The notes beneath the pieces were generated by a model, which worked only from the letters and a program-made list of their open reading frames with translations, did not search any database and was not told where the DNA came from. Position numbers and translations under genes: made by a program. This document shows positions 2,812 through 19,858 of a DNA stretch of 23,121 bases, in pieces. This stretch comes from Candidatus Sericytochromatia bacterium (lineage in GTDB: Bacteria > Cyanobacteriota > Sericytochromatia > S15B-MN24 > UBA4093), in the NCBI GenBank assembly GCA_036676985.1, contig JAKFBU010000013.1, forward strand, positions 1-23,121, written 5' to 3'. Position 1 is the first letter of the stretch; every line of letters starts with the position of its first letter.

Positions 2812-2848
2812 AGGCCTTCCTTTCTGGAGCAGGCGAATCTATGGATCT

Positions 2849-2875: not shown

Positions 2876-2899
2876 GGCCTGGTTTTAGGTTATGTGCGG

Positions 2900-5800
2900 T
2901 CAAACATGCACGGATTGCCCCAACGCTGCGGCCCCTTGCCACCCGTCGACGGACAGATCGTCCAGCGTGCGCTTTCCGACCTTGCCCGCTCGTTGGGCGT
3001 CCCGCTCCTCCCCATGGGTCACGATGCAGTCCACCGCGGTGTAAAGCCGGGCGAGACCCGGCAGATCCAGGGCGTCCGGAACCAGGAGGAGATCGGGGCC
3101 ATCCTCGGGATCGAGGCCCGCCTCGGCCAGGGCGCCGGCAATCCTCTCGCCGGCATCCTCGGGCGTGACGCCCTGGCTCGGATCGAGCCAGAGAACGAGG
3201 CTCACGTCCGCGTCGGCCGGGAAGGCACGCGCGTAGCTGGTGACGACCTCCTGCCAGGAGGTGGAGCCCCACTGGGGGTGATGGAGGAAGGCGTAGCGGC
3301 GTCGATCCTCGAGCGGCAACGGCATCAGCCCCGCCTGAAACGGGTCGGAGAGCGCGAAGCGAGTCGGGGTGCGCATGCCGAGGATGCGCAGGCGCTCGAG
3401 GATCCGCTCGGCCATGTGCGCCCACGTGAAGCCGGACAGGATCCGGTCGCGTGCCCGCTTGCCGACCGCTTTGGCATGCGCGGGGTCGGCCACCACCGAT
3501 TGCATCAGCGTGATCAGGGCGTCGCCATCGGGCTCGGCCCACCAGTAGCCGACGGCGCTGGGGGGGAGGGACGACGGGGGGAGGGGGACCTCGCGCGCCG
3601 GAATCAGGAAGGCGGTCTCCGAGTCGCAGAAGTCCAGGCAGGCCCCGTATCCCGTCACGATGACCGGCAGGCTCGTTGCCATGGCCTCCGCGATGGGTAG
3701 GGCGAAGCCTTCCCCGCGATAGGGGTGGACCAGGCAATGGCATGCCGCGTAGAGGCCGGCAATCTCGGCATCGCTGAGCGGATCGTCCAGGTACTCGATT
3801 TCCGGAGCCAGTGGATTGGCCTGGATCTCGGCGATGCGGTCCTTTGCCGTCTGGCCCTTGTAGAAGGACTTGCCACCGAGGTCCTTGATGACCAGGCAGA
3901 CGTCGTCGGCCGCGGTGAAGGCCTTCACGTACGCCTCCAACAGGACGTCGATGCCCTTGCGCAGGATCGTGCCTCCGACGAAGAGGAACTTGAAGCGTTT
4001 CCGGGTCGCGAGGGGGTACTTGGGGGCGTCCGGGTGCAGGCGATCGGTGTCGACCCCGTTCGGGATCACGATGACCTTGTCGGCGGGAATGCCGCTGCGC
4101 AGATAGCCGTCGCGCACGTGGCTCGTGGGCACCCAGATCTCGTCCACCTGGTGCGTCATGGGCTCGACCCACTCGTGGGGAATGCCCCCGAACTCCCAGG
4201 GCTGGATCATCGCCCAGGCCCCCTCGGCGGGCGGTTCGAACTTGGGCGGCCACTGGTGACGCACGTGGACGTCCGCCGGACCTGTCAAAGGGGCGTTGGT
4301 GCGATCGGCGATCACCTGGAGCGAGGGGTCGACCTCGGGACCGAACTCATCGGCCTCGTAGGGGACGATCGAGAGCTCGAGACCCGACTCGGCGAGGCGC
4401 CGGCAAACTTCACGGTTGATGAGCGCCAGGGAGTGGCGGACGAATTGCGAGCCCTCCCAGACGAGCCGCAGGCCCTGCCTGGCCCGCACGTCGTGGTAGT
4501 GCCCGACGAGCTCGTCCAGGTAAGCGTCGAAGCCGCGTGGCGCCTGGATGGCTCGCTGCATCCGACCGAGCAGGCCTGGGTCGCGGACGAACTGGAAGAG
4601 CGCGCTGCCCAGCCCCGGGGCGTTGCGGGGATCGACCAAGTAGCCGGTCTTGCCCTCCTCGATGAAGTCGGGAATGCCGCCGATGCGGCTGCCGATGACC
4701 GGGCAGCGGGCCGCAAGGGCCTCGGCGACCACCAGGGGGGCGCAGTCTTCCCAGATGGAGGGGATCACGACCACGTCGACGCGCTTGAGTAGCTCGGGCA
4801 GTTGCTCGACGTCGTAGCGGCCATGGAACTTGACCAACCCCTTGGCGTCGATCTCATGCAGCATGTCCTCGTAGGCCTTGGGGCCGCTGCCGAACAGGTG
4901 CCCCTCGATCTGATCCCGGCCGAAGGACTGTAGCGCCCGGACGAGGACGTGTACCCCCTTCTGGGGCAGGAGGCTGCCGATGAAGCCGACCTTCAACGGG
5001 CGATCGAGTGCACCTTCGAGGGGGCGTCGCGAGCCCGCTTTCTCCCAGAGCCATTCCACCGTTTCCGGCTGCTGCTGGAGGACGTGGATCCGCGAGGCGT
5101 CATGCCCGCTGCCGGCGTAGAGCTCCTTGACCCGGTGGGAGACGGCGAGATGCCGATCGACCCAGCGGTTGAGCATCTGCCGTCCGCTGTCCGCGCGCAA
5201 GGCGTAGCCACCCGTCTGATCGGGCCGACCCACGCAGATGGCGCACTTGCTGCCGTCTTCCGAGGGGCCGCTGCAGAGTGTCAGGTCCTCCTGGAAGAGG
5301 TACATACGCGGGCAAATGGGCCAGTAGTTGTGGGAGGTGAAGACGCTCGGCACTCCGGCCTGCTTGATCTCGGCCGCGATGCCCGTCGAGAAGTTGAGCA
5401 GGCTGTGGTAGTGGACGATGTCCGGCCGCAGCTCGGCGACCAGCTGCGCGATGATCCGCCGCATCTGGGGATCATCGGCCTCGCGCTCCGGGTGCTCCAT
5501 GTCGTAGAAGATCGCCGGGCGGTTGTAGATGGCGAAGAGCTGGACGCCCTCCTCCTCGCTCGCCTCGACGTGATAGGCGGGCTTGTCCGGTCGATTCTGG
5601 GACGGGGTGTAGATCACCGTAATCCGGTGACCCCGCCGGACGAGCGCCTTGGCGATCTGCCGCGGCAAGATGGTGCCGCCGCCTTCCTCGGCCCAGCCGT
5701 ACATGGTGAAGAGGATATGCAACGGATGATCCGCCGGGATGACCTTGGGGGCCGGCGCGCTCGCCGCGACCGTCGAGAAGGCCTCCAGGGGGCGCGCAGT

Positions 5801-8800
5801 CACCGCGACCGTGGGCGGGAGCGTCGTGAGTTGCGGCACCATGCCAAGGCCGCTGTCGATGGCCAGGGCCCAGGCCTCCTTGTCCATGACCCCTTGCGCC
5901 CACCGGCTTTGGGCCGCGGTGTACAGGTCGGGGTGGTTCAGGACGACCCGCGCCTTGATGCGTTGATCCTTGGCGCGGTCTTGACCGTAGACGCTGGCGC
6001 CGTGGATGCGATAAAAGTTGGTCGCCGCCGGCACGTGGACCCCGCGATGTCCCTGCTTGCCGCAGCGGATCCAGAAGTCCCAGTCCTCGTACCCTTCATG
6101 CGTCGGGAAGCCGCCCACGTCCTCCCATGCCTGCCGTTTGAAGAGCGTGGCCATGGTCAGGTAATTGAAGCGCTGCAGGAGCTCGAAGCTGTAGGCGGGC
6201 GGCACGTCGAAGGCCGCCGTGTTGCCGAATTTCTGGACGTTGGGATAGGCGACCGAGGCCTCCGGATGGGCTTCGAGCGCCGCCACGCAGGCGGCGAGGT
6301 AGTTCGGGGGGAGCTTGTCGTCGGCGTCGAGCGTGACGATGTAGTGGCCGCTCGCCTGTTCGATGCCGCTGTTGCGCGCGCGCAGGTGTCCGCCGTTCTG
6401 CTGCGTGTGCAGGCGGATGGGGAACGTCGGGTAGTCGGCCATGAGGGCCTGCGCGACGTCGCGCGAATCGTCGGTGCTGCCGTCATCGACGATGATGACC
6501 TCGCACGCCGGATGGGTCTGGGCGAGGACGCTCTCCACCGCCGTGCGCAGGAAGCGACCGTAGTTGTAGCAGGGGATGATGACCGAGACGCGCGGTTCGC
6601 CCGGGGGGGGCGCCTCGTGGGGAATGGTCCCCTTGGTGATCTGGAAGTACCGTAGGCCCAGCGCCTGGGCAAGGTTGCGCTCGCGCGGACAGCCCGTGTC
6701 CAGCACGGCGGTGGCCGCTCGGAAGACGGAGACCCGTGCGCTCGACGGAGCGTCGATCAGGAGCACGTCGGGAATGGCATCCGGATCGTAGCCGTGCTCG
6801 GTGAGCCAGGCCAGGATCTGCTCTTGGCGCGTTTCGGCCGCGCCTTCCGGAACCCGGATCATGAGGCACAGGTCGAGGTTGGACGCGTAGTCCGCCAGGA
6901 CCGCCGCGAGGTTCGCTTCCCAGGCCTCGGGATCCGCCACGAGCCAGCGATCCCGGGCCGCGGTGGCGACGTCCAGGGCCGGAGCCTCCCAATCGGCCTC
7001 TTCCACGGAGGGGTGGCGCAGCGGCAGCGACTCGCCGCTCCATGCGGGCGGGAGCTCCGGCCGGGTCGTCGCGGCCCGCCGCAGGGCGTCGGCGTCGGCG
7101 TCGGGCAGGACGGTGCGACCCCGCTCCTCGGCAAGGCTCATTAGCGTCCGAGTCCCCGCTTGATCGCCAAGCGGGAGGAAGGCATGGGCGCTGAGCAACT
7201 GGGCCAGGAACACGGAGTTGAACTCCGCCGGGCGCACCTGCTGGATGTCGACGCTGGGCGTCAGGGCAGGGTCGAGTCCGAGGGAGGCGACGGCCTCCTC
7301 ATAGGCTAGGGCGATCTGCTGGGTCTGGGGGTCGCTGGTGCTCAGGACGACGAGGGGGTACGGGTCTTCCGGCTGGAAGGTGGTGAGGTACGACGCCATG
7401 GCGCGCCCCAGGGCGAGCGGGTCGAGCTCGTCGCCGGTGGCCGCGATGAAGGTGGCCGCCGTGGTCTCGGCAGGGACGTTGGCCTCGCTCGGCCAGCTGA
7501 CCTGGAAGAGCTCGATTTGCCGGGGATCTTGCCCGAGCACCGTGTAGTTGGCTTGTTCGGGTTTCGGCGCGATGCGGGCGACCTCGAGGTTGCTGGCGAT
7601 CGCCGCGAGCCCGAAGCGCTCGAGGGCCTTCTGGAGCACCTCCTGCCCGGCTTGACAGTCACCGCTCATCAGCAGGCTCACCCCCAGGTTGTTGTGGGCC
7701 TCGGGGAAGTCCGGCGCCAGTTCCAGGGCCGCTTCAAACTCAGGCACCGCCAGCCCCGGATCCGGCAGCTCGGCGCGCAGCATGAGGTTGCCCAGATCTA
7801 GGTGGGCCGAGGCACGCGCCGATACCTCGTCGGCACAGAAGGCGATCTCCGGATAGAGCTCGTCGATGGCATAGCGTTCGCGCATCTCGCGCCGCATGCG
7901 CCGCGCCTCCTCGCCGAGTCGGTCGTGGCGCTTGCTGGAGGTCGAGTGGCTCTCCTCGTGGGCGCGGTACTTGAGCAGCTTGTCCGGGAGCACCGCGAAG
8001 CGGCAGCGGGCCACGGCGGCCTTTAGCCAGAACTGGAAGTCGTGGGGCCAGCCGTACTCCTGCAGGCCGATGCGACGGAGGATGGAGCGCCGGAACATGG
8101 CCGTCGGGTTGGGGACCAGACAGCACCGGAACATCTGTCGGCCGAACAGCCGACGTTCGAATACGTCGTTGGCGATGGGTCGGATGATGCTGCCGCCGAG
8201 GTCTCGCCCCTCCGCGTCGATGTAGCTCGCGTCGTGGTAGATGACCTCGAGCGACGGATCAGCGAGAAAGGCCGTGACCTGGCGCGCGATTTTCTCCGGG
8301 TGCATGAGGTCGTCGCCGTTGGCGATGGCGATCAGGTCGCCCGTCGTGGCCTCCAGGCAGCGGTTGAAGGTCTCATGCAGCCGCGCTCGACCCTTGTTCG
8401 CTTGGTATTCATACCGTACGCGCGGATCGTGCAGGTACTTCGCGACCACCTCGCGGGTGCCGTCGGTCGAGCCATCGTCGAGGATGTACAGCTCGAAGGC
8501 CGTGTGGGTCTGCTTCAAGATGGCCTGGATGGCCTCGTCGAGGTAGTGGGCGTAGTTGTAGACGTAGGCGACGATGCTGACGCTGGGCAAGGGCCGCTCT
8601 ATCGGGAGGAGGCTCGGGTGTGCCGCTAGGAAGGCATCCTCCGCATCGGTCGTGCGCTGTCTTTCGAACTCGGTGGGAGGCAGGTATAGGGGGCTCCTGC
8701 CGAGGATGCCCTCCGCAATGCGATCGAGAGAGGCATGCCGCCCGGGGGCGAGCTCTTCGACGGACTGGTAGCGAAGCTCGCCGTGCGAGAAGTTCACAAC

Positions 8801-10168
8801 CTTCACCAGCGGGAAGGGGATGCTCAGACCGAAAAAGAGTCGAAATGCAGCACGGAGGGCGCGCCGACGGTATTCATCTGACGGAGCGGTAGAGAGGAGG
8901 TTCTCCAGGAAGGCGGGATAGGACTCTTTGCTGTCGAGATCCAGGGTGAAACCCCACCCCTGGTACATGGGACGTCCTACCACTCCGACGGGGATGCCCC
9001 GGCTTACGGCCGTTTCGAGCCCCACGGTCGAATTGTAGACCAGGGTCGCGGTCGACATGTCAATGAGCGTGTAGGAACTGACGTCGTCCTTGGGCCAGAC
9101 CACCGAGACGTTGGCAGGCAACTGGGCCAGCGTGCGCTCGTAGCGCTCCATCACCCGTCCGCTGCGACCCTGCATGTGGTCCTCGTTGGGGTGAATCCGA
9201 ACGATCAGGTGGTAATCGGGATGTTCGTCAAACCAGCGGATCGTATCGGCAACCCACTCGATCATTTCGGGGTAGGGCCCGCGCCAGTCGGCGGTCGATG
9301 CCTCGGACTGCGAGCTGGTGAAGAGGGTGACGATTTTCCGCCCGCTCGGGATGCCCAGCCGGGCCCTGGTGGCCTCGATCGGCTGTGGCGGCGGTGAAAA
9401 GGCGTGCCAGCTCAGCTCTTTTCCGTAGCGACGCTGCATGATGAGCCGGTAGGCGTCCTCGAGTTCGGCCTCGAGGAGGGGAACCGCCTGCCAGCGATCG
9501 CGACACTCGTCGAGGCGGGGCCGGGCCCAGATCGCCTGATTCTCCGCAAAGGTCAGCGACTCGGGCAACAGGCCCCGCTCATGGTGGATGACGCGCAGGC
9601 CGCGTTCCCGCGCGAGCTCGTTGGCAACGCGGTGGCTGAAGAAACTACCGTTGAGCATGGCGACGCAGTCAGGCTGGAACTCGTCGAGTTGGCGCGATAG
9701 GGACCGCATGGCGAGCGCTCCGCCGAAAAGGTAGTTCCGGAAGGTCTGGGCCTGCTCGCCTGATAGCTCGCCGAAATCCGGCTGCCGGTAGTGGGCAATG
9801 AGGGAGCTCTTGCACCATTCGCCGAGGGGACGGCCGTCGAACTGCGCCGTGAAGAGATCTACATCTGCCATCCCGGCAAGCCAGGCGCTGACCTCGCGGC
9901 GGTCCTCAGGGTTTACCCGATCGCTCAGCCAGGCATGCTCGAGGTGCAAATTCTCGAAGACCCTGCGTCCGAGTGCGTGGCAGGATTGGCAGCCTTGCTC
10001 GGTGCGGGTGCTGTTTCCCCAGAAGATGTCGCAAGCTGGGAAGAAGCTGTCGCAGCCGACGAAGCGAACCTCGGCCCCCCGGTGCCGGAGGGCGTGGGCA
10101 ATGGTCGCCTCCCAGTAGGTGTGAAGGTACCAGTCACCGGAGTAGGGAGAGTAGAACAGGATCTTCAA
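2900..10168 (-). CDS. Giant multidomain glycosyltransferase (KpsS/capsule-synthesis-like + GT2 + TPR + GT2 + GT4 + GT4, plus three degenerate GT-B lobes)
   Basis: Uninterrupted ORF. Likely start is TTG at 10168 (MKILFYSPY, GAGGT 6 nt upstream); the ORF track extends it to 10189. Motifs: RIHPNE / NSTVGLE / YQGWGFTLD; ILDDGSTD..NGDD; IVDDGSTD..LDADD; QKG..SIWEDCAPLVVAEA; RKG..YRGEGFALPIAEA. Confidence 0.9.
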   Translation of the reverse strand: MKILFYSPYSGDWYLHTYWEATIAHALRHRGAEVRFVGCDSFFPACDIFWGNSTRTEQGCQSCHALGRRVFENLHLEHAWLSDRVNPEDRREVSAWLAGMADVDLFTAQFDGRPLGEWCKSSLIAHYRQPDFGELSGEQAQTFRNYLFGGALAMRSLSRQLDEFQPDCVAMLNGSFFSHRVANELARERGLRVIHHERGLLPESLTFAENQAIWARPRLDECRDRWQAVPLLEAELEDAYRLIMQRRYGKELSWHAFSPPPQPIEATRARLGIPSGRKIVTLFTSSQSEASTADWRGPYPEMIEWVADTIRWFDEHPDYHLIVRIHPNEDHMQGRSGRVMERYERTLAQLPANVSVVWPKDDVSSYTLIDMSTATLVYNSTVGLETAVSRGIPVGVVGRPMYQGWGFTLDLDSKESYPAFLENLLSTAPSDEYRRRALRAAFRLFFGLSIPFPLVKVVNFSHGELRYQSVEELAPGRHASLDRIAEGILGRSPLYLPPTEFERQRTTDAEDAFLAAHPSLLPIERPLPSVSIVAYVYNYAHYLDEAIQAILKQTHTAFELYILDDGSTDGTREVVAKYLHDPRVRYEYQANKGRARLHETFNRCLEATTGDLIAIANGDDLMHPEKIARQVTAFLADPSLEVIYHDASYIDAEGRDLGGSIIRPIANDVFERRLFGRQMFRCCLVPNPTAMFRRSILRRIGLQEYGWPHDFQFWLKAAVARCRFAVLPDKLLKYRAHEESHSTSSKRHDRLGEEARRMRREMRERYAIDELYPEIAFCADEVSARASAHLDLGNLMLRAELPDPGLAVPEFEAALELAPDFPEAHNNLGVSLLMSGDCQAGQEVLQKALERFGLAAIASNLEVARIAPKPEQANYTVLGQDPRQIELFQVSWPSEANVPAETTAATFIAATGDELDPLALGRAMASYLTTFQPEDPYPLVVLSTSDPQTQQIALAYEEAVASLGLDPALTPSVDIQQVRPAEFNSVFLAQLLSAHAFLPLGDQAGTRTLMSLAEERGRTVLPDADADALRRAATTRPELPPAWSGESLPLRHPSVEEADWEAPALDVATAARDRWLVADPEAWEANLAAVLADYASNLDLCLMIRVPEGAAETRQEQILAWLTEHGYDPDAIPDVLLIDAPSSARVSVFRAATAVLDTGCPRERNLAQALGLRYFQITKGTIPHEAPPPGEPRVSVIIPCYNYGRFLRTAVESVLAQTHPACEVIIVDDGSTDDSRDVAQALMADYPTFPIRLHTQQNGGHLRARNSGIEQASGHYIVTLDADDKLPPNYLAACVAALEAHPEASVAYPNVQKFGNTAAFDVPPAYSFELLQRFNYLTMATLFKRQAWEDVGGFPTHEGYEDWDFWIRCGKQGHRGVHVPAATNFYRIHGASVYGQDRAKDQRIKARVVLNHPDLYTAAQSRWAQGVMDKEAWALAIDSGLGMVPQLTTLPPTVAVTARPLEAFSTVAASAPAPKVIPADHPLHILFTMYGWAEEGGGTILPRQIAKALVRRGHRITVIYTPSQNRPDKPAYHVEASEEEGVQLFAIYNRPAIFYDMEHPEREADDPQMRRIIAQLVAELRPDIVHYHSLLNFSTGIAAEIKQAGVPSVFTSHNYWPICPRMYLFQEDLTLCSGPSEDGSKCAICVGRPDQTGGYALRADSGRQMLNRWVDRHLAVSHRVKELYAGSGHDASRIHVLQQQPETVEWLWEKAGSRRPLEGALDRPLKVGFIGSLLPQKGVHVLVRALQSFGRDQIEGHLFGSGPKAYEDMLHEIDAKGLVKFHGRYDVEQLPELLKRVDVVVIPSIWEDCAPLVVAEALAARCPVIGSRIGGIPDFIEEGKTGYLVDPRNAPGLGSALFQFVRDPGLLGRMQRAIQAPRGFDAYLDELVGHYHDVRARQGLRLVWEGSQFVRHSLALINREVCRRLAESGLELSIVPYEADEFGPEVDPSLQVIADRTNAPLTGPADVHVRHQWPPKFEPPAEGAWAMIQPWEFGGIPHEWVEPMTHQVDEIWVPTSHVRDGYLRSGIPADKVIVIPNGVDTDRLHPDAPKYPLATRKRFKFLFVGGTILRKGIDVLLEAYVKAFTAADDVCLVIKDLGGKSFYKGQTAKDRIAEIQANPLAPEIEYLDDPLSDAEIAGLYAACHCLVHPYRGEGFALPIAEAMATSLPVIVTGYGACLDFCDSETAFLIPAREVPLPPSSLPPSAVGYWWAEPDGDALITLMQSVVADPAHAKAVGKRARDRILSGFTWAHMAERILERLRILGMRTPTRFALSDPFQAGLMPLPLEDRRRYAFLHHPQWGSTSWQEVVTSYARAFPADADVSLVLWLDPSQGVTPEDAGERIAGALAEAGLDPEDGPDLLLVPDALDLPGLARLYTAVDCIVTHGEERDAQRAGKVGKRTLDDLSVDGWQGAAALGQSVHV

Positions 10169-10258
10169 GGGCTTACCTCGTGCTGCCAATCGCTTTCGTG
10201 CATGGTCAGGAGTTCAGGTGGTTGGCTCGAACCAGCGCTGTGCTTCCGCCAACGGGGG

Positions 10259-10933
10259 TCAAAGGATCCGACGCGCCGTCGCAAATGCCTCCGCCGCATG
10301 ACGACCTACCTTGCAGCCATGGTACAAGGCGGCGATTCTCACCGCCTCGACGGAGCGACTGTGCGGGGCCGGGCGCATCTCCGCGGCATAACATTCCAGG
10401 GCGACCACTAGCTGGTCCAGGTAGGCGGTGATATCGACGTAGGTGTCGGGCAGGAAGGGAGCGCCAATACTCGGGATGCTCCAGTCCGTGGCACTGGGCG
10501 TCTCGAAGCAGCGGATTTCCTCCACTCGCTCTCCAGGCTGGGGACGAAAGGCGGTCAAGGTCGCCTGACAGGCGATCCGGTGGTCCACGTTCAGGTCGCC
10601 CCCATGGTGGGTGTAGACAAGGTCGGGCTGGACCCGGGCCTTGGCTTGCTCGACCTTCTTCGCGATGTCGAGGAGAGGAACCGTGTCGAAGCTGTTGTCC
10701 GGAAAGGTCTCGAACCCCAGGATCGACGCACCCAGGAGGCGGGAGGCAGTCTCTGCCGCCTCCCGGCGCTCTCGAACGGCCTCCGGATTTACCGAGGTGC
10801 GAGAGCTGACCCCGTCGCCGAGGAACAACACTGAGACCGTGTCGCCCTCGGCGGCGTGTCGAGCCATCGTTCCGCCCATGCCGAGGACCTCATCATCGGG
10901 ATGGGCGGCGACGATCAAGATGTTGCGTGGCAT
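10259..10933 (-). CDS. PIG-L/LmbE family N-acetyl-sugar deacetylase
   Basis: Metal-binding motifs AHPDDE and THHGGDLNVDH, with C-terminal AEAF. Confidence 0.92.
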   Translation of the reverse strand: MPRNILIVAAHPDDEVLGMGGTMARHAAEGDTVSVLFLGDGVSSRTSVNPEAVRERREAAETASRLLGASILGFETFPDNSFDTVPLLDIAKKVEQAKARVQPDLVYTHHGGDLNVDHRIACQATLTAFRPQPGERVEEIRCFETPSATDWSIPSIGAPFLPDTYVDITAYLDQLVVALECYAAEMRPAPHSRSVEAVRIAALYHGCKVGRHAAEAFATARRIL

Positions 10934-10957
10934 GTTCTCTCGCTCTCTGGGGACGGG

Positions 10958-11680
10958 CTAAATCTGCTGCTTGAGCTGCTCGTACTTGTGGAAGACGCTG
11001 CCTTCCGCCAGGTACTTCTTCTGGCACACCGTCTCGAAGGTGGTGAAGCCATCCGTGTCGATGGAGTGGAACCACGCGTCCTCCTGCAGCTCCATCCGGT
11101 GAAGGCGTTCGAGGAATTCCTCGTTGATCCGATCCCGCGGAATGATGGCCACGCCGCTGTCGTCGCACACGGCGATCGTCCCGTCATACTTAGCCCGCAG
11201 CTCGGCCAGGAGCTCGGGGGACGGGCCGGATTCGTTCTTCACGTTGAAGCAGCCGACGGGCGTGCCGCCCTCGCTCCAGATCGCGTAGTTCTCCTTGCGC
11301 AGGGTGTGAACGTCCCGCACCAGCCCCATCATGACCACGGCGGCCACGTCCCGGTAGAGCATGAGGAACTTGGCCACCAGGGCCCCGAACACGGCGTAGT
11401 CTTTGCAGTCGATCGCGGCCACGATCAGGATCTCGCCCGGCTGGACGTCCTGGATCTGCTCGTGGAACTCCCAGTTGCTGCAGTTGTAGGCGTAGACGAG
11501 GCGTGTCGGTCCCACCCGGTGGTGTCCGTAATTCAGGGGCTGGACCTTCGGAATGGCGCCGGTCTTGCCGAGGCAGTCGGTGACCTCCGAGGTGCAGATG
11601 CGGTTGCGGCGGATGGTCTCGATCATCCGATCCTGCACAGATTGGGCAGCGATCCGTTTCTCTACGGTGGTCTCGGGCAT
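10958..11680 (-). CDS. RraA / HMG-CHA aldolase-like protein
   Basis: TSEVTDCLG, VQPGEILIV, AVFGALVA, GLVRD and AVCDDSGVAIIP fit the RraA-like fold. RBS AGGAGG. Confidence 0.8.
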   Translation of the reverse strand: MPETTVEKRIAAQSVQDRMIETIRRNRICTSEVTDCLGKTGAIPKVQPLNYGHHRVGPTRLVYAYNCSNWEFHEQIQDVQPGEILIVAAIDCKDYAVFGALVAKFLMLYRDVAAVVMMGLVRDVHTLRKENYAIWSEGGTPVGCFNVKNESGPSPELLAELRAKYDGTIAVCDDSGVAIIPRDRINEEFLERLHRMELQEDAWFHSIDTDGFTTFETVCQKKYLAEGSVFHKYEQLKQQI

Positions 11681-11688
11681 GGTGCCTC

Positions 11689-12504
11689 CTATCGGCGAGC
11701 GAGGGGTGCGGGAGAAGCGTTGAACAGCTCCAGGGCCGTCTGAGCCATGAGCTGCTCGATATCAGCAGCCGAGAAGTGGTGGGCCTCCAGGAACGCCAGG
11801 GTCTCGTCCCGGGAGTGCTGCATGGTCACGTAGGGGTGATCCGAACCGTACAGCCAGCGGTGCGCGCCGAGCTTGCGGATGGCGAAGGCGAAGTCCGTCT
11901 CGACGCTGCTGCCCCGCCAGAACGACACCGAAAAGGAGGTGTCGATGAGGAGATTCGGGGCGTCGAACGCCATGGACATCACCTCCAGGACCATGCGGCC
12001 TCCCCCGTGCAGGGCGATGAGCGGCGTCTTGACCGCTCGGGCAAGGGCACTCACCAGGCGCACGCCGCTCACGTCGAAGACCCGGAGCGTGCCGTAGCTG
12101 CAGCAGATTGCGCACCACAGGCCCCGGGCCCCCGCGTACTGGGCCACGCCGATGGCCGCGGGAAAGTCATGGTCTGCCAGGTTGAGCTCGTACGGGTGGA
12201 ACTTGATGCCGGCCATCCCGAGGGCAGCGGCCGCGTCGACTCGGTCGTAGGCGTCGGGGCGCCGGGGGTCGATCATGACCGTGGCCTTGAGGTCGGAGCG
12301 CTGGAGGCGAGCGGCCAGCGGGTGTCCCGGCTCGAGCAGGAAGTCGCTGTCGAGGAGCATGAGGTTTCCGGCTTCGATGCCGGTGGCCTGCAACTCGGAC
12401 TCGACGATACCGACGCGCTCGGGCGCGTCGAACCGCCTGAAATCCAGCTCGTTGGCAAGGTCGGGCTGGGGGGTGAGGTGGAGATTGAAGTCGACTAGGC
12501 GCAT
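11689..12504 (-). CDS. Amidohydrolase family protein (amidohydrolase_2-like TIM barrel)
   Basis: DFNLH (a variant of DxHxH), GIKFHP, LHGGG, IDTS and LYGSDHPY. Confidence 0.85.
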   Translation of the reverse strand: MRLVDFNLHLTPQPDLANELDFRRFDAPERVGIVESELQATGIEAGNLMLLDSDFLLEPGHPLAARLQRSDLKATVMIDPRRPDAYDRVDAAAALGMAGIKFHPYELNLADHDFPAAIGVAQYAGARGLWCAICCSYGTLRVFDVSGVRLVSALARAVKTPLIALHGGGRMVLEVMSMAFDAPNLLIDTSFSVSFWRGSSVETDFAFAIRKLGAHRWLYGSDHPYVTMQHSRDETLAFLEAHHFSAADIEQLMAQTALELFNASPAPLARR

Positions 12505-13145
12505 GGGGCTTTTCTCATGACGACCAGCATCTCGCGCTGGGGGATGGGGCGGTAGTCGTGGTGCAGCGAGACGAAGGGAGTCAGCTCGAAGGCCAGTTCG
12601 AGGATCTTGGCCGGCTCATAGTAGAAGACGAAGTCCTCTTTCGGGTAATCCGGCGTGAGCTCCGTGCTGAGCACGTCGAAGACCAGGGCTTCGTGGCACA
12701 GCTCGAAGGCCTTCGAGACTAGCGTCCGGGCATAGGTCCAGTTGTCCAGCTCCGACTGTTTGAAGTTGAGCAGCCCGAGCATGACGGCGACGTCGGCGGA
12801 AACCTGGTCGGGCTCCACCTGCAGCGGGCTCGCAACCAGGAAGCGCGCCTCCGGATACTTCTCGGCCGAGCGGGCGATGAAGTCGGGGTTGATGTCGAGG
12901 CCTGTGTAGGCGCTCGGCGTGAGGTTCGCCCGCTCGAGGGCCCCCAGGAGGTCGGCGAAGCCGCAGCCGATGTCCAGGACCGAGCGGCCTGCAAACGGGG
13001 TGCTCGCGAAGACCCGGGCGAATCGGTGCTCCTGCTGCTCCCGGCTGCCCCAGCCCAGGGTGCGGCAGGACTCGCCGTGGGACTGGTAGCGCTCCGAGTA
13101 GCGATGGACGGTCTGTTGATCGATGGCTTCGTAAGGGCTAGGCAT
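12495..13145 (-). CDS. Class I SAM-dependent methyltransferase
   Basis: Motif I SVLDIGCGFAD and motif II YTGLDIN. Overlaps both neighbours, suggesting translational coupling. Confidence 0.9.
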   Translation of the reverse strand: MPSPYEAIDQQTVHRYSERYQSHGESCRTLGWGSREQQEHRFARVFASTPFAGRSVLDIGCGFADLLGALERANLTPSAYTGLDINPDFIARSAEKYPEARFLVASPLQVEPDQVSADVAVMLGLLNFKQSELDNWTYARTLVSKAFELCHEALVFDVLSTELTPDYPKEDFVFYYEPAKILELAFELTPFVSLHHDYRPIPQREMLVVMRKAPCA

Positions 13146-14340
13146 AGGTCACCTTCAGGCCCTGCAGGGAGCGCTCGGCAAGCGCCTGAACCTCGGTTCG
13201 GGAGGCCCCCAGGGTGATCACGAACCCGTGACGATCGGCGTCAGTGGTGGTGGGCAGCACTTCGTCTCCGGCTCCGACGCGCAGGCGCAGGGCTGCCACT
13301 CCCTCGAGTCCGAGGACCTCTTCCTGACCTTGGATCCGCTGGATGCGTCCATGCGGGAAGACGAAGAACTTCAGGTAGGCAGCCCGGTGATCCTGCCCAC
13401 CCTTCTGTCGGTACAGGTCCTCGCCCAGCCCGAGGCTATCCATGACGAGCTGCCGGGTGACATCGATGCCCGATACGCCGGGCACGATGATCGAGGAGGT
13501 GTAGCATCCCCCGCCGCGGTTGGCGATCTCGATCAGGTAGGGATCCCCTTGCGCGTCCACCATGTACTCGGCGTGGGTGTAGCCGAAGCGGTAGCCGAGG
13601 CCGGCCACCACCCGGTCGTTGTTCTCGAGGGCTCGCTGGTAGACGGGCTCGGAGAGCTCGCCGGGGTAAAGGATGTCGATGGCCACCTGGCGATCCTTGA
13701 TCAGGGTCTTGGTGGCCAGGCTCAAGGAGCGATGGCCGCTCTCGGGAAAGCAGTAGCCGTCGACCGTGATATGCACGCCGTGGATGAAGGTCTCGACCAA
13801 GACCAGGCGCGAGTGCGAGTGGATGAGCGCCTCGTAGTAGGCCGCCCGTAGTTCCTCACGTGTATCGGCCCGGTTGACGCCGAAGCTCCCGCGGTTGTCG
13901 ACGGGCTTGAGGATGACGGGATAGCCGACACGCTCGGCGAAGCGTTCGGCCTCCGCAAGCTCCGTACATGCCTGGAAGGCGGGCTGCAGGAGGCCGGCCT
14001 CCTGGGCCCGCTGGCGTTGGAGCAGCTTGTTGGTGGCGATCTGGGCTTCGCGGAGGCGGGGCCCCGGCAGCCCGAGCTTCTCGGCGATGACCGTGCAGGC
14101 GAAGTAGGAGTAGTCGCATTGGTCGGAGACGACGGCGGCCGGCTGCAGCTTCTCGGCGAAGGCGAGCACCTCGTCCAGGTTCCGCGGGGCGATCACCTCC
14201 ACGTAATCGAGCCCGAGATCCCGCGCGTAGGAGTCGTCCGGATGAAGTCCGACCACCGGGTGCCCGAACTCCTTCGCCGTTCGGATCAGGGCCTCTTGCT
14301 CCCAGCCGAGGTTGATGACCAGGATCGGTCTAGCCGACAT
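13138..14340 (-). CDS. ATP-grasp amide ligase (L-amino-acid-ligase-like)
   Basis: TNKLLQR, GYPVILKPVDNRGSFGV, LVETFIHG, HAEY and LIEIANRGGG. Start reassigned to ATG 14340 (MSARPILV, GGAGG upstream), overlapping the synthase stop by 11 nt. Confidence 0.9.
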   Translation of the reverse strand: MSARPILVINLGWEQEALIRTAKEFGHPVVGLHPDDSYARDLGLDYVEVIAPRNLDEVLAFAEKLQPAAVVSDQCDYSYFACTVIAEKLGLPGPRLREAQIATNKLLQRQRAQEAGLLQPAFQACTELAEAERFAERVGYPVILKPVDNRGSFGVNRADTREELRAAYYEALIHSHSRLVLVETFIHGVHITVDGYCFPESGHRSLSLATKTLIKDRQVAIDILYPGELSEPVYQRALENNDRVVAGLGYRFGYTHAEYMVDAQGDPYLIEIANRGGGCYTSSIIVPGVSGIDVTRQLVMDSLGLGEDLYRQKGGQDHRAAYLKFFVFPHGRIQRIQGQEEVLGLEGVAALRLRVGAGDEVLPTTTDADRHGFVITLGASRTEVQALAERSLQGLKVTYA

Positions 14341-15370
14341 ACTCGAGATCCTCCCAAGACAGCAGGGTTCCGGCCGACATGTCGCGCCGGAGGCGGTGGC
14401 AAACCAGGTGTTCGAGCATTTCCGCGGGAATCCCACCGGCCGTGCGACGAAGCGTCAGGTGATCCCGCAGGATCCGCTCCCCCTTCGGCAGGTCGCCGCG
14501 CGCCACCCACTTGAACGAGACGTCCGCCCGGAAGGCCAGCTCGTCCGGCGTGAGCGCGGGGCGCAGCCCGTCGCCCATGCCGGCTTCGATTTCGCGGACA
14601 TGGCGGACCATCTCCCGGAACTCGGCAGGCTCGATGGCGAAGTGATGGTCGGGGCCCGGCAGGCTCCGGTCGAGCGTGAGGTGCTTCTCCAGCACGACGG
14701 CGCCGAGGGCGACGGCCGCCGGGGCGAAGTGGATGTCGTGCGTGTGGTCGGAGTAGCCGACCAGGCAGCCAAACGCCTGGCGATAGGTTTGGATCAGGCG
14801 CAAGTTGGCGCGCTGGGGCTCGGTCGGGTACTGGGAGACGCAATGCAGAAGGACGAGCTGATCGTTTCCCGCCCGGCGGCAGAGCTCGAGCGTGCGCTGG
14901 ATGTCGCCGTAGTCGGCGATGCCCGTCGACATCACGAGCGGCAGGCCGGTGGCCGCGGCTCGCGCCACCAGCTCGTCGTAGACGCCGAACTGGGCGGAGG
15001 CGATCTTGTAGGCGGGCACGCCGTGCTGACGCAACAGCTCGATGGCCTCCACGTACGTGGGCGACGAGATGAAGTGCAGCCCCCGGCGCTGGCAGTGGGC
15101 CGAGATCTCGGCGTACCAGGTTTCGGACAGCTCGATCTGGGCGAAGAACTCTCGAAACTCGGGGGTGGTCTTGTCCGGGAGGTACAGTTCGTCGAACTTC
15201 AGGGACTGGAACTTGGCCGCATCTGCTCCCGCTTCAGCGGCCGCGTCGATCAGCTCCTTGGCCAGCGCCATGTCCTGGTTATGGTTCGAGCCAATCTCCG
15301 CGATGATGTAGGTGGGTGCGCCGTTCCCGACCAGCCGATGGCCGATTTGGATCTGTTTCGCATCGTGCAT
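14330..15370 (-). CDS. pseI: NeuB/PseI/SpsE-family nonulosonic acid synthase with C-terminal SAF domain
   Basis: IIAEIGSNHN, ADAAKFQ, KIAS, MSTG, LHCVSQYP, GYSDHT and LEKHLTLDR. Start reassigned to ATG 15370 (GGAGG 9 nt upstream; 15376 is an alternative). The pseI symbol rests on genomic context with pseB/C/F/G. Confidence 0.85.
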   Translation of the reverse strand: MHDAKQIQIGHRLVGNGAPTYIIAEIGSNHNQDMALAKELIDAAAEAGADAAKFQSLKFDELYLPDKTTPEFREFFAQIELSETWYAEISAHCQRRGLHFISSPTYVEAIELLRQHGVPAYKIASAQFGVYDELVARAAATGLPLVMSTGIADYGDIQRTLELCRRAGNDQLVLLHCVSQYPTEPQRANLRLIQTYRQAFGCLVGYSDHTHDIHFAPAAVALGAVVLEKHLTLDRSLPGPDHHFAIEPAEFREMVRHVREIEAGMGDGLRPALTPDELAFRADVSFKWVARGDLPKGERILRDHLTLRRTAGGIPAEMLEHLVCHRLRRDMSAGTLLSWEDLEYVG

Positions 15371-15394
15371 ATTCATTCGCCTCCACTGGTAGTT

Positions 15395-15421
15395 ACATCG
15401 GCTTGATGAGGAGAACCTTAA
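15395..15421 (-). promoter_or_regulatory. Putative sigma28 promoter for the synthase/tailoring operon
   Basis: Minus strand reads TTAA(15421-15418)-N15-GCCGATGT(15402-15395), directly upstream of the RBS. Confidence 0.65.
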
Positions 15422-15767: not shown

Positions 15768-16715
15768 CTAGGATCTCAGCCGACAAATCAGCTGAATGAC
15801 ACTCGCACGCCTCTGATGCAGGGCCACGTCATCGAAGATGCGATCCGCTTCGTCGACGACCCGCTGCAAATCAGGAGCCTGCTGGGTCAGCGTCGACAGG
15901 TCAATCCCCAATCGCTTGCAGATCGAGTGGATGAAATACCAGTTGCGGGGCATCTCATGCTGGAGCAGGACCTCGAATCCTGCCTTGGATAGTAAGCTGG
16001 CGATGCCCGTGCGGGAAAACAGGACCAGGTGATAGGGCGGCATGGTCCAGAAGAAGTCTGCCCCGAGGTGCTCGAAGAGCAGGCTGTCGACCGTAGGGAG
16101 TTCGAGGAGCAGGATCCCCTCGGGGTTCAGCAGCCGTTGAGCCTCGGTGAGGAATCGGCCAGGCTCCTTGAGGTGTTCGATGAGGGTCCACGCCGTCACG
16201 ACGTCGAACCGCTGATTCGTCACGTCGGACCAGTGGCCTTGCTGCAGGTGGCCCTGCAAGTCCAGCCGTTGCTGGCCCATTTCGATCGAGCATCGGGAAA
16301 GGTCGATCCCCGTCGCTGCGAAGCCTTCGTCGCGCATGAAGCGAACGAACACGCCGGCGCCACAGCCGACGTCCAGTAGGCTCGCCTTCGGTTGGATAAA
16401 GCCAAGTAGGGGCTTGATGCGGTGCTCGTAGAAATACGCTCGCTTGACAGGGTCGAAGTAACGTGACAGCGAGGCCTCGAGGATGCTGCGCTCCACCTCC
16501 GCCTCCGTGGCCTCGGCGGCATAGAAGTCCGCCAACGCGCTATCCGTCGGAGGGGGATTGACGAAATGCGTGCCGCAATCGAGGCACTTCGAATGGTGGA
16601 TCCCCTCGGCCGACATGAATCCCCGTTTGGAGGTCAAGGCGGAGACGAGCAGCCGGCTCGAGGTACACGCCGGGCACTGCTCGAGCATCGGATCAAATGC
16701 AAGCGTAGAATTCAT
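15768..16715 (-). CDS. Class I SAM-dependent methyltransferase with N-terminal CxxC..CxxC zinc ribbon
   Basis: CPAC and CLDC; LLDVGCGAG, GIDLS, FDVVTAWTLIEH, LNPEG and PPYHL. Start is ATG 16715 (AGGA upstream) or 16739. Confidence 0.88.
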   Translation of the reverse strand: MNSTLAFDPMLEQCPACTSSRLLVSALTSKRGFMSAEGIHHSKCLDCGTHFVNPPPTDSALADFYAAEATEAEVERSILEASLSRYFDPVKRAYFYEHRIKPLLGFIQPKASLLDVGCGAGVFVRFMRDEGFAATGIDLSRCSIEMGQQRLDLQGHLQQGHWSDVTNQRFDVVTAWTLIEHLKEPGRFLTEAQRLLNPEGILLLELPTVDSLLFEHLGADFFWTMPPYHLVLFSRTGIASLLSKAGFEVLLQHEMPRNWYFIHSICKRLGIDLSTLTQQAPDLQRVVDEADRIFDDVALHQRRASVIQLICRLRS

Positions 16716-17024
16716 GGATCTTCCTGCCTCTGCGGTCATGGGTGGAGCTGCGAGTTACTGAGTGGGTGGCGATAGCCCCTCTCGGGAAAGCATTAGCCGT
16801 CGACCGTGGTGGGACCGCCGTGGTATAGAGCGCGAACGGGCATGCTTCAGTCGACCTTATTATGTGTCGACTCCCTCAGTCATAAACCGTGCGGGCGAGC
16901 CAGTTCTGGGCCCATGGAGGCTCCCTGCGCGGCCATGACCCCTGCTTGGTAGTATCGTCAGCCCCCAGCAACACTTGAGATTTGCCGTAGAATCGAAGGG
17001 TGCTCGCAACGGAGGTGAATCCAC

Positions 17025-18179
17025 ATGCGCCCGTGGGCGAAACGAATGGACGCGATCGCGTTCTCTGCATCGGTAAATCTGGCCCAGCGGGTCCGCGACG
17101 ACAAGGCGGCGGGCCAAGAACTGTACGACTTCACGGTAGGAGAGCCTCACTGGTCACCCCCCGAGTCCGTGCTCGCGGCGGTTCATGCTGGCTTGGAGCA
17201 TGGGCATACCCGCTATTCGGACTCCCGCGGGCTGCTGCCCCTACGCGCGGAGCTGGCACGGATCCTCTCGGTGCGCGGGGTGCCCGCAGCCGAGGAGTTC
17301 GTGCTGCTCTCGCCAGGCGGCAAGCAGGCTATCTACACGGCTTGCCATGCCCTCTTGGATCCGGGTGATGAGGTCATCCTCTTTCCGCCCTGCTGGGTTA
17401 GCTATGCAGACATCATCAAGCTCGCGGGGGGAGTTCCGATCGAAGTGCCTTGCCATGCCGCCGATCGCTTTCGCCCGAGCGAGGAGGCGCTGCGCTGCGC
17501 CATCACGCCCCGGACCAAGCTCGTGATCGTCAACAACCCCGGCAACCCAACCGGTGCGGTCTGGGAGCCCGCCGTTGTTTCCATGGTGGCGCGGGTGGCT
17601 GCCGAGCACGACTTGTGGCTCCTCGATGATCTGGTCTATGAGGCTTTCAACTATTCGGGCGCACCGGTTTTGCCGATTGGGGCAACCCCCGAGGGCCGCG
17701 AGCGTACGCTTACGGTCGGCAGCTTCTCCAAATCCTACGCCATGACGGGCTTCCGAGTAGGCTACTTGAGCACGCCCGAATTCCTATTCTCACCCTGCTT
17801 GAAGGTCGTGCAGCAGACGGTTACGTGTCTGCCGGTCTTCGTACAGGAAGGAGCCTTGGCGGCTTTGCGCGCGGCCCCGAGCTTTCCGGCTCACATGGCC
17901 GACCATTACGCTCGGCTCGCCCGCGTGGTCTCGGACGAACTGGGAGAGATCGAGGCAGGGCCCCTGGAGGGGGCCTTCTACGCCTTCGTGGACGTTCGCC
18001 GAAAGGGCATGACCTCGACTGCTTTCTGCGACTGGCTCTACCAAGCGTACCGCGTGGCCTGCGTCCCCGGATCCGCGTTCGGCGAGGCCGGCGAGGGGTG
18101 GGTCCGCGTTTCCTATGCGTGCGAGGAGTCGCAGCTGCGCGAAGGCATGCGCCGCCTGGCAGCAGCCATCCGGACCTAA
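17025..18179 (+). CDS. PLP-dependent aminotransferase class I/II (aspartate aminotransferase-like)
   Basis: VGEP, GGKQA, NNPGNPTG, DLVY and SFSKSYAMTGFRVG (PLP lysine), EGWVRVSYA. RBS GGAGGTG. The only plus-strand gene in the window. Confidence 0.93.
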   Translation: MRPWAKRMDAIAFSASVNLAQRVRDDKAAGQELYDFTVGEPHWSPPESVLAAVHAGLEHGHTRYSDSRGLLPLRAELARILSVRGVPAAEEFVLLSPGGKQAIYTACHALLDPGDEVILFPPCWVSYADIIKLAGGVPIEVPCHAADRFRPSEEALRCAITPRTKLVIVNNPGNPTGAVWEPAVVSMVARVAAEHDLWLLDDLVYEAFNYSGAPVLPIGATPEGRERTLTVGSFSKSYAMTGFRVGYLSTPEFLFSPCLKVVQQTVTCLPVFVQEGALAALRAAPSFPAHMADHYARLARVVSDELGEIEAGPLEGAFYAFVDVRRKGMTSTAFCDWLYQAYRVACVPGSAFGEAGEGWVRVSYACEESQLREGMRRLAAAIRT

Positions 18180-19171
18180 CGGGAGGGAAGGGCCGCCACA
18201 AGCTCGTGGGCGATTCGGTTGGCGCCCTGTCCGTCCAGGACCGCTCGTCCGGCTGTGCCGAGGCGCTGCCGCTCTTCCGGGTCCTGCATCAAGCGGGTCA
18301 TTGCCTGCTTCAGCGAGAGGAGCCAAGCCTCGCCCTTGGCCCAACCGACTGAGATCAGGCTGCCTCGCTCCTCGAGCGAGGCCAGGTTCACCAGTTGATC
18401 TTCTCCTACGCAGAGCGCGACGGTAGGCACACCCGAGCATGCCAACTCGTAGAGCGTCTGACCGCCCGCGGTGATGGCGAGGTCAGCCGTCCGGATCCGC
18501 CGCGGCATGTCGGGCGGATGGCGGTGGAGTTGAACGTTGGGGCCGGCCGCCGGCACGCGCTGAAAAAAGGGCCCGACGATGAAGTCGATGACGAAGTCCG
18601 GGGCTTGGTGAGCGGCCCAGTCTTGCAAGGCTTCCAAGAGGCGATCGGCAATTCCCAAGAGGTCATCGCCCCCGAGCGTGACCAAGACATTGGCCGGGAG
18701 TTGCTTGTAATCTCGTGCAGGCGGTACCAGGAAGTCGGGACGCACGATCTGGTAATCGGGTCCGAGTAGCAGCCGGGTTGTCGCTCCCGTACGATAGGCG
18801 AGCTTGATGGCCCCAGGAGCCCCGTTGATGACGAGGTCAACCGGCAATTCTCGATCAGCCTTGTCGTCAAAGCAGGCGAGCACCATCCCTGAGGGTCGGC
18901 GTGCCGCAAGGGTGCAGGGGTCAAGCCGGTAGCTGTCGGCGACAAGGGCCCGGGCCCCGGCTTGTTCGGCCTCAAGCCACAGGCTCTCGGGGCTTGCCGG
19001 GCCGACCCGTACCGACATCCCCTGCTCGCTGAGAACCCCCTCGAGGCTCGGCTCGACCAGGAATACGACCTCGCGGCCCATGGCCTTAAGGCTTCGGGCC
19101 AACCCGATTCCGCGCATGGCGTGACCGAGGCCCACGCCGTGGCCTCCGTCGACGTGCAGGGCGATCGTCAT
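18176..19171 (-). CDS. pseG: PseG/SpsG-like UDP-sugar hydrolase
   Basis: DGGHGVGLGHAMR (catalytic His motif), DSY, LLLGPDY, LVTLGGDD and TAGGQTLYE, in pse context. Confidence 0.85.
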   Translation of the reverse strand: MTIALHVDGGHGVGLGHAMRGIGLARSLKAMGREVVFLVEPSLEGVLSEQGMSVRVGPASPESLWLEAEQAGARALVADSYRLDPCTLAARRPSGMVLACFDDKADRELPVDLVINGAPGAIKLAYRTGATTRLLLGPDYQIVRPDFLVPPARDYKQLPANVLVTLGGDDLLGIADRLLEALQDWAAHQAPDFVIDFIVGPFFQRVPAAGPNVQLHRHPPDMPRRIRTADLAITAGGQTLYELACSGVPTVALCVGEDQLVNLASLEERGSLISVGWAKGEAWLLSLKQAMTRLMQDPEERQRLGTAGRAVLDGQGANRIAHELVAALPSR

Positions 19172-19857: not shown

Positions 19858-19858
19858 G

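Follow-up and report, generated by a model that had tools for sequence, protein, structure and literature searches.

A conserved five-gene cassette beside pseudaminic acid genes of Candidatus Sericytochromatia, predicted to give the sugar a custom N-acyl group

We found five consecutive genes directly behind a NeuB-family nonulosonate synthase gene in a 23,121-nucleotide (nt) stretch of a Candidatus Sericytochromatia bacterium genome (hereafter the window; contig JAKFBU010000013.1 of assembly GCA_036676985.1). In the order of transcription, they encode an ATP-grasp ligase, a class I S-adenosylmethionine (SAM) methyltransferase, an Amidohydro_2 protein, an RraA-like protein and a PIG-L deacetylase. 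This cassette is very probably a conserved module for the tailoring of pseudaminic acid (Pse). A more specific reading, to which we give a probability of roughly 45%, is that the five genes and the synthase turn the Pse pathway toward a custom N-acyl derivative of Pse, which is placed on flagellin.

The families of the window open reading frames (ORFs) were assigned by Pfam at gathering scores and by NCBIfam at equivalog cut-offs. All six genes lie on the minus strand. The synthase, a member of a non-canonical clade (348 residues, 14330..15376; NeuB Pfam 253.7 bits), is followed by the ligase, a carboxylate-amine ligase of the L-amino-acid-ligase (LAL) type (400 residues, 13138..14340; ATP-grasp_4 46.2 bits against a cut-off of 27, LAL_C2 59.8 against 29.4), the methyltransferase (216 residues, 12495..13145; Methyltransf_12 39.2 against 30), the Amidohydro_2 subfamily protein, a TIM-barrel hydrolase (271 residues, 11689..12504; 56 against 26.4), the RraA-like protein, a putative class II pyruvate aldolase (240 residues, 10958..11680; 62.5 against 24.5), and the PIG-L/LmbE-family deacetylase (224 residues, 10259..10933; 88.2 against 28.2). 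Neighboring genes overlap by 11 nt (synthase and ligase), 8 nt (ligase and methyltransferase) and 10 nt (methyltransferase and amidohydrolase), or are separated by 8 nt (amidohydrolase and RraA-like gene) and 24 nt (RraA-like gene and PIG-L gene). The ligase ORF extends from 13138 to 14436, and its internal ATG at 14340, giving 400 residues, matches the N-termini of 33 homologues; in the synthase ORF (14330-15514), the likely start is the ATG at 15376, which has a GGAGG in front. These coordinates match the initial annotation, which had placed the five families directly behind the synthase with 8-11 nt overlaps and 8-24 nt gaps, and all five proteins pass Pfam. None of them reaches any NCBIfam equivalog cut-off. 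No minus-strand terminator-like site was found within the cassette in a scan for terminators and sigma-70 promoters, the results of which were at chance level.

The ligase has 289 homologues at E-values up to 1e-3 among 8000 scored candidates, and the best 120 of these are 43-64% identical over nearly the full length and bear only generic names. A scan of one genome per species, with a query alignment of 34 ATP-grasp sequences, gave 43 confirmed loci from 118 pattern matches. According to record titles and taxonomy, these loci (cited here as L001, L002 and so on) span 12 phyla: Pseudomonadota, Planctomycetota, Campylobacterota, Thermodesulfobacteriota, Bacteroidota, Cyanobacteriota, Minisyncoccota (Paceibacterota), Spirochaetota, Verrucomicrobiota, Acidobacteriota, Elusimicrobiota and Bacillota. 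The window proteins and extra proteins from the loci were mapped onto all loci by tblastn. Fractions refer to the 21 full loci, in which the ATP-grasp gene has 5.5 kb or more of flanking sequence on either side; the other 22 are cut short by contig ends. PIG-L, Amidohydro_2, a NeuB-family synthase and PseC are each found in all 21 full loci, a PseG-like protein in 20, PseB and the 216-residue methyltransferase in 19 each, and the RraA-like protein in 14. The arrangement is far beyond chance, because the gene set recurs around the ATP-grasp homologue in 21/21 full loci. The closest relative of the window is L001, a gammaproteobacterial metagenome-assembled genome (MAG) with 59-64% identity, where the gene order (synthase, ATP-grasp, methyltransferase, amidohydrolase, RraA-like, PIG-L) is the same.

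Two enzymes of the canonical Pse pathway reach their equivalog cut-offs in the window: PseB, the inverting 4,6-dehydratase (21767..22804, minus strand; TIGR03589 527.8 bits against 407.75), and the aminotransferase PseC (20593..21786, minus strand; TIGR03588 513.9 against 423.5). PseH, PseG, PseI and PseF do not. The cytidylyltransferase (CTP_transf_3 by Pfam, 245 residues, 19859..20596, minus strand) has no PseF equivalog match at E-values up to 0.01, a formyltransferase-like protein (239 residues, 19168..19887, minus strand; Formyl_trans_N 37.3 bits) stands in the place of PseH, and the PseG-like uridine diphosphate (UDP)-sugar hydrolase (331 residues, 18176..19171, minus strand) scores 135.4 bits on TIGR03590, below the cut-off of 153.55. 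A systematic divergence of PseG in cassette loci is ruled out, since two of the six loci tested, L001 (259.7 bits) and L036 (186.9 bits), pass the cut-off. On the NeuB model the window synthase reaches 279.6 bits (cut-off 399.65), and on the PseI model it reaches 247.3 (cut-off 340.25). All 26 synthases compared, including that of the window, are below both cut-offs and score higher on the NeuB model, which fits a clade that may be adapted to an altered substrate.

We found that each full locus provides for the acylation of the amine introduced by PseC. Of the small ORFs in the loci, nine were tested and all nine proved to be GNAT acetyltransferases, and PseH is the best and nearly sole NCBIfam match for 10/10 GNATs tested. 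A GNAT gene is present in 17 full loci and a formyltransferase gene takes its place in the other four (L001, L016, L020 and L043); no full locus has both, and none has neither. In the window, no GNAT gene was found by tblastn. The window formyltransferase has homologues in L001, L016 and L020, and the gene content suggests that the window makes an N7-formyl variant. With a GNAT or a formyltransferase in every full locus, the PseC-introduced amine is provided for, and the ligase would thus be an extra acylation that needs a freed amine. The same 21/21 count rules out the ATP-grasp ligase as a simple replacement of PseH. The hexose C2 becomes the nonulosonate C5, and therefore only the N5 acetyl needs a deacetylase. 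The sole other nitrogen of the sugar bears this acetyl group, derived from N-acetylglucosamine (GlcNAc), and the universal PIG-L is of the acetyl-removing kind, which supports deacetylation followed by religation. Alternatively, the ligase might activate a carboxylate of the sugar or of an acyl chain and amidate it with an amine or amino acid, with PIG-L exposing an amine that is left free or formylated. ATP-grasp enzymes couple any carboxylate with any amine, ATP-grasp amidoligases decorate glucuronic acid in capsules, and a formyltransferase is present in the window. However, the mutual exclusion of GNAT and formyltransferase points to one PseH-type role rather than to a second re-acylation, and the cytidylyltransferase step needs an intact C1 carboxylate region, so that we regard this alternative as quite improbable.

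The protein families are consistent with re-acylation of N5. The PIG-L protein matches positions 1-128 of the 129 in the PF02585 profile, and its best NCBIfam matches are BshB1, BshB2, MshB and Mca (60 bits on BshB1, cut-off 182.5). All 28 cassette-linked sequences compared share its residues H11, D13 and D14 (AHPDDE), D117 and H118; we take the AHPDD motif and the later Asp-His to be the metal-binding and base residues of PIG-L proteins. The best PDB match of the ligase is the L-amino acid ligase BL00235 (3vot, E 4e-18), and the context suggests that its acceptor is a sugar amine. A search for longer, fused forms of the ligase gave only carbamoyl-phosphate synthases, which is weak evidence. 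We give about even odds to a route in which one and the same amine is first deacetylated and then re-acylated by the ATP-grasp enzyme.

We found that the aldolase of the cassette is exchangeable. In the PDB, the RraA-like protein is matched best by 3noj, a Pseudomonas 4-hydroxy-4-methyl-2-oxoglutarate/4-carboxy-4-hydroxy-2-oxoadipate (HMG/CHA) aldolase (E 5e-15). R122 and D123 align to Arg123 and Asp124 of 3noj, presumably its catalytic Arg and metal-binding Asp, and are invariant in 18/18 sequences, as is an ExQED motif near the C-terminus. In loci without an RraA-like gene, an HMGL-like (DmpG-type) protein sits inside the cassette. Among the 42 loci with a usable ATP-grasp match, 21 have the RraA-like protein, 10 have the HMGL-like protein and none has both; in the full loci, the HMGL-like type accounts for four. 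Scored on the 4-hydroxy-2-oxovalerate aldolase subfamily model (cut-off 229), the HMGL-like protein of L035 passes with 298.8 and that of L016 fails with 167.4. The HMGL-like gene follows the ATP-grasp gene directly in L015 and L016, and lies between the amidohydrolase and PIG-L genes in L017, L022, L025, L027, L028, L030 and L035, which is the RraA-like position in the window and L001. At least four changes between the RraA-like and HMGL-like states are needed on an ATP-grasp tree of 38 proteins, drawn from the window and 37 loci (L007, L010, L021, L026, L033 and L041 were excluded as truncated or mis-picked), and the RraA-like gene has given way to the HMGL-like one in at least three independent events. 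Two unrelated folds with a common metal-dependent pyruvate-enolate chemistry have thus been exchanged repeatedly, which argues that a pyruvate aldol step, or an oxaloacetate decarboxylase step, is part of the pathway. The participation of an aldolase had been proposed in the initial annotation, and this exchange strengthens it.

The aldolase might instead work on the sugar skeleton, by C4 epimerization through retro-aldol and aldol reactions or by salvage or cleavage of the nonulosonate, while the ligase and PIG-L edit an amine independently. A nonulosonate is itself a 4-hydroxy-2-oxo acid, both aldolase types cleave such acids according to their family descriptions, and the aldolase gene often adjoins those of the synthase and ligase. 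On the other hand, a phosphoenolpyruvate-dependent NeuB-family synthase is already present in 21/21 loci, HMG/CHA and DmpG aldolases are known for their action on small substrates, and this role for the aldolase would leave the ligase-fused methyltransferase described below without a role. We therefore think such a use of the aldolase improbable. That the aldolase serves the acyl group, with an acyl donor derived from a pyruvate aldol product, is in our estimate as probable as its opposite.

The methyltransferase has the invariant residues R15, Y16, R19 and R41 and a DxGCG motif. Against the PDB, its profile aligns with many SAM enzymes, in each case over the Rossmann core only; several of the top matches are amine N-methyltransferases, which is a lead only. 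In the Lachnospiraceae locus L039, a single ORF of 630 residues (9998-11890) carries fused ATP-grasp and methyltransferase Pfam domains, which ties methylation to the substrate or product of the ligase. Apparent fusions in L027 and L032 were ruled out as frame artefacts by the tblastn match coordinates. Action of the methyltransferase on the acyl unit is a prediction that we consider evenly balanced. A radical-SAM/SPASM protein is found in seven full loci. It adjoins the ATP-grasp protein in the Bacillota cassettes L034, L037, L038, L040, L042 and L043 (also in L005 and L007), a hint that the acyl unit of the Bacillota versions is modified further.

The amidohydrolase subfamily is sharply bounded, with 191 representatives at E-values up to 1e-30 among 1.84 billion sequences, all of about 250-285 residues. 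The window protein covers only positions 86-288 of the 289 in the Amidohydro_2 profile (PF04909), and it has neither an NCBIfam match nor a PDB match by sequence at E-values up to 0.1. The best PDB match of the family profile is the uncharacterized 3cjp (1.5e-8), followed weakly by decarboxylases and lactonases of the same Pfam family. A homologue from Leptospira matches only clusters named 'amidohydrolase family protein'. The usual amidohydrolase motif consists of an N-terminal HxH plus a later His and Asp; in this subfamily, the N-terminal motif is DFNxH, and H166 and D222 are invariant. We found no longer, fused forms of the amidohydrolase, which is weak evidence. We consider it rather doubtful that this protein acts on the acid.

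The following scheme draws on family membership, residue conservation and gene co-occurrence, from which we infer the individual steps, their order, the identity of the acid and the role of the amidohydrolase. PseB and PseC, by their equivalog family membership, would make UDP-4-amino-4,6-dideoxy-AltNAc (AltNAc, N-acetylaltrosamine). The formyltransferase-like enzyme, as a stand-in for PseH, would cap the new 4-amine, which is N7 of Pse, and PIG-L would strip the acetyl group inherited from GlcNAc from the 2-amine, which is N5. The LAL-type ligase would then re-acylate the N5 amine with a carboxylic acid through an acyl-phosphate. This acid would be made on site: the RraA-like class II aldolase may join pyruvate to an aldehyde or keto acid, giving a 4-hydroxy-2-oxo acid, the 2-oxo group of which would be aminated or reduced, and the methyltransferase may N- or O-methylate the acyl unit. 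The least certain part is that of the Amidohydro_2 protein, a candidate lactonase, hydratase or ester hydrolase for the same small acid. The non-canonical synthase, the PseG-like hydrolase and the cytidylyltransferase would process the altered sugar. The editing may take place on the UDP-sugar, the free hexose or the nonulosonate. Overall, an acid-building sub-module would feed a sugar-editing sub-module composed of PIG-L and the ligase.

A number of observations weigh against this scheme. Several genes often separate PIG-L from the ligase, and in Leptospira the PIG-L gene is upstream of the synthase gene. The methyltransferase is missing in two full loci. In L014 (region 1290-4511), a Helicobacteraceae MAG, the genes behind an ATP-grasp orthologue (45% identity) encode PAS and methyl-accepting chemotaxis proteins, and the 6.8-kb contig contains no cassette. 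The PseH cut-off is reached by only 2/10 GNATs, and therefore the acyl unit, rather than the sugar, could be the substrate of some GNATs. The canonical PseG proteins of L001 and L036 imply that the UDP-sugar may still be di-N-acylated at the PseG step. In the amidohydrolase, which has no characterized close relative, Asn replaces the first His of HxH. The RraA-like protein scores 64.9 bits on the CHA aldolase equivalog NF006731 (cut-off 179) and 61.3 on TIGR02798 (cut-off 304.5). At the equivalent of 3noj Asp102, which we take to be a second-shell Asp, the window and L001 have Ala, and the other 16 of the 18 sequences have Asp or Glu. The class I aminotransferase of the window (384 residues, 17025..18179, plus strand; Aminotran_1_2 200.9 bits), which the initial annotation had named as a possible participant in making the acid, is only 25-33% identical to the cassette-linked class I aminotransferases of eight loci, which are 35-52% identical to each other; such a gene is present in just six full loci, and L001 has none within 10 kb. 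These identities do not make it a clear orthologue of the cassette-linked enzymes, and position is its only tie to the pathway. Finally, no aldolase of either type is found in the flanks of three full loci (L029, L031 and L040), nor in the 9.4 kb of the short locus L024.

The loci without an aldolase bring up a further alternative, namely that deacetylation and ligation take place but the acyl group is an ordinary cellular amino acid, for example Glu or Ala. The ligase would couple it and the methyltransferase would N-methylate it, giving a group like the N-methyl-glutamyl one reported on Clostridium botulinum flagellin, while the aldolase and amidohydrolase would serve otherwise, for example in oxaloacetate decarboxylation or a separate modification. 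The ligase is indeed of the L-amino-acid-ligase type, the top PDB matches of the methyltransferase include phosphoethanolamine N-methyltransferase and BamL/BpumL (in the Rossmann core only), and the C. botulinum glycan is a reported example (bioRxiv 10.1101/2020.06.03.131540). However, 18/21 full loci retain within the cassette an aldolase with one or the other of two unrelated folds, and the aldolase has been repeatedly exchanged, which is hard to explain if it is irrelevant to the product, and the amidohydrolase is kept in all 21. We thus regard an ordinary amino acid as unlikely, though less so than the two alternatives described above. Taken together, comparative genomics supports the deacetylate-and-ligate logic of the initial annotation and the involvement of an aldolase; the acid that it had named (a 4-hydroxy-4-methylglutamate-like unit), the link to the aminotransferase and the role of the amidohydrolase are not supported.

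We then consider the destination of the sugar. At the edge of the window lies the 5' part of a flagellin gene (1..303, minus strand, the first 101 codons, continuing past the edge; Flagellin_N E 8.9e-31). A sigma-28-like motif is located upstream of this gene at 390-413 on the minus strand (TAAAGTTC-N11-GCCGAAAC), and another at 2852-2875 on the minus strand (TAAAGTCG-N11-GCCGATAG), upstream of a gene for a TPR-GT2-TPR protein (792 residues, 433..2811, minus strand, by Pfam). A strict pattern gave no matches. The looser pattern with which these sites were found (TAAAG, 14 bases, GCCGA) has two matches in the window, both intergenic, against 0.08 expected, and 0/100 shuffles gave two. No such motif is present upstream of the synthase gene. 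The flagellin gene, the sigma-28-like motifs and the Pse genes together indicate a flagellin glycosylation island around a Pse-type sugar, in line with the flagellin context given by the initial annotation. Among the loci, flagellin genes are found in the flanks only in the window, L006 and L041. The use of the cassette is not specific to flagellin; the carriers presumably include non-flagellated bacteria such as Nostoc. Among the cultured carriers are Rubritalea marina, Nostoc sp. C117 and Anaeromicropila populeti. In Leptospira adleri (L018), a transferase of the LIC12162 family (14363-16120; 367 bits on the NCBIfam model o_ant_LIC12162) is encoded 3' of the cassette. This family is labelled O-antigen-associated, and the modified sugar of L. 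adleri therefore probably goes onto lipopolysaccharide instead of flagellin.

Every window gene except the class I aminotransferase gene is on the minus strand, and the order of transcription is PseB, PseC, cytidylyltransferase, formyltransferase-like, PseG-like, a second methyltransferase (Methyltransf_23), synthase, the five-gene cassette, a multi-domain glycosyltransferase, the TPR-GT2-TPR protein and flagellin. The second methyltransferase (323 residues, 15768..16739, by Pfam) has two N-terminal Cys-x-x-Cys pairs with the look of a zinc ribbon. Its homologues are 39-40% identical in both Leptospira loci and it occurs in four full loci; its link to the cassette is uncertain. The multi-domain glycosyltransferase (2429 residues, 2900..10189) consists of a Capsule_synth-like N-terminus, two GT2 domains, a short TPR region and two GT4 domains. 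The N-terminal 520 residues have a homologue directly 3' of the cassette in Nostoc (L013:15626-17188; 30% identity over 529 residues) and weaker homologues in L001, L034, L036 and L042. This Capsule_synth-like region is a candidate for the enzyme that transfers the modified sugar.

Among the other loci, a class III aminotransferase is found in nine full loci and an aldo-keto reductase in 12. A side module that is absent from the window recurs in L013, L018, L019, L032, L034 and L037-L040 and consists of a cytidylyltransferase, an aldo-keto reductase and sometimes a short-chain dehydrogenase/reductase (SDR). Its cytidylyltransferase is fused to the class III aminotransferase in Leptospira and to the aldo-keto reductase in L001. 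One in-frame stop codon each was found in the RraA-like ORF of L004 (2741-3481) and in the amidohydrolase ORF of L032 (8841-9677), which could reflect a pseudogene, an assembly error or recoding. A tblastn search of plasmids with the ligase gave three distant matches (25-28% identity), which are uninformative.

Extended to all loci, our reading is more tentative than for the window, and we hold it somewhat less probable than not. The cassette would represent a widespread, as yet uncharacterized branch of nonulosonate biosynthesis in at least 12 phyla. A class II pyruvate aldolase, with one or the other of two unrelated folds, would make a 4-hydroxy-2-oxo acid, which would be aminated or reduced, methylated and put on N5 of Pse by a mycothiol-like deacetylate-then-ligate route with a LAL-type ATP-grasp enzyme. 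The product would decorate flagellin in the window, and in other bacteria probably lipopolysaccharide or further glycans. Nonulosonic acids occur on flagellin, capsules and lipopolysaccharide, where they influence motility, recognition by phages and antibodies, and immune evasion. N-acyl groups are the chief source of their diversity. If true, our reading would define a new class of gamma-hydroxy-acyl pseudaminic acids and would explain in genetic terms how exotic acyl groups arise on flagellins, for instance in Treponema denticola and Shewanella. A portable module of six to seven genes with a clear chemistry would allow such sugars to be predicted from genomes, would supply deacetylase and ligase enzymes for modified pseudaminic acids, and would explain a recurrent block of 'hypothetical' genes in the glycosylation islands of Campylobacterota, Leptospira, cyanobacteria, planctomycetes and gut Lachnospiraceae.

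Known systems resemble the cassette in part. In mycothiol and bacillithiol synthesis, a PIG-L enzyme (MshB or BshB) deacetylates a GlcNAc-derived sugar, to which an amino acid is then ligated. In the route proposed here, PIG-L would likewise free an amine for subsequent acylation, and BshB1, BshB2, MshB and Mca are the best matches of the window PIG-L. In contrast, its scores fall well short of the cut-offs (60 against 182.5), mycothiol and bacillithiol synthesis use ligases that are not ATP-grasp enzymes, and the sugar of the window belongs to a nonulosonate pathway. In the protocatechuate 4,5-cleavage pathway, LigI and LigJ (Amidohydro_2) and LigK (RraA-like) act on neighboring intermediates. 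The same two families are thus paired, there on 4-hydroxy-2-oxo-acid or lactone intermediates, but the window proteins are below the equivalog cut-offs or unmatched, their metal sites are altered, and their context is biosynthetic instead of aromatic catabolism.

Flagellin glycans with comparable groups have been reported. C. botulinum flagellin is reported to carry N-methyl-glutamyl legionaminic acid (bioRxiv 10.1101/2020.06.03.131540), and T. denticola flagellin is reported to carry 2-methoxy-4,5,6-trihydroxyhexanoyl Pse (PMC13439194). Both products need a ligase and a methyltransferase, and their link to the cassette is a chemical analogy only. By this analogy, the T. denticola acyl chain appears to have the carbon pattern of a reduced, O-methylated aldol product of pyruvate and glyceraldehyde. 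A catalogue of phase variation in Campylobacter fetus includes an ATP-grasp protein and, at a distance of two locus tags, a methyltransferase (PMC6321876). In full-text searches on nonulosonic, pseudaminic or legionaminic acid, we found no description of the cassette, and it is best filed as a widespread nonulosonate N-acyl tailoring system that is undescribed in the literature searched.

The nearest genetic precedent is the sfmABCDE genes of Shewanella oneidensis. As described, they encode a NeuB-domain protein, a thiamine pyrophosphate (TPP) enzyme, a reductase, a methyltransferase and an ATP-grasp protein and are needed for flagellin modification, and the flagellin glycan consists of a mono-acetylated 274-Da nonulosonate and a variably methylated moiety of 236-264 Da (PMC3765264). 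The C-C bond former in that operon is a TPP (IlvB-like) enzyme with an SDR reductase, and no PIG-L, RraA or DmpG aldolase, or Amidohydro_2 protein is described for it. The window, by Pfam, has the synthase, methyltransferase and ATP-grasp ligase of an sfm-type operon and no TPP enzyme or SDR. Compared by description, both systems combine within one operon a NeuB-domain protein, an enzyme that forms C-C bonds, an ATP-grasp protein and a methyltransferase.

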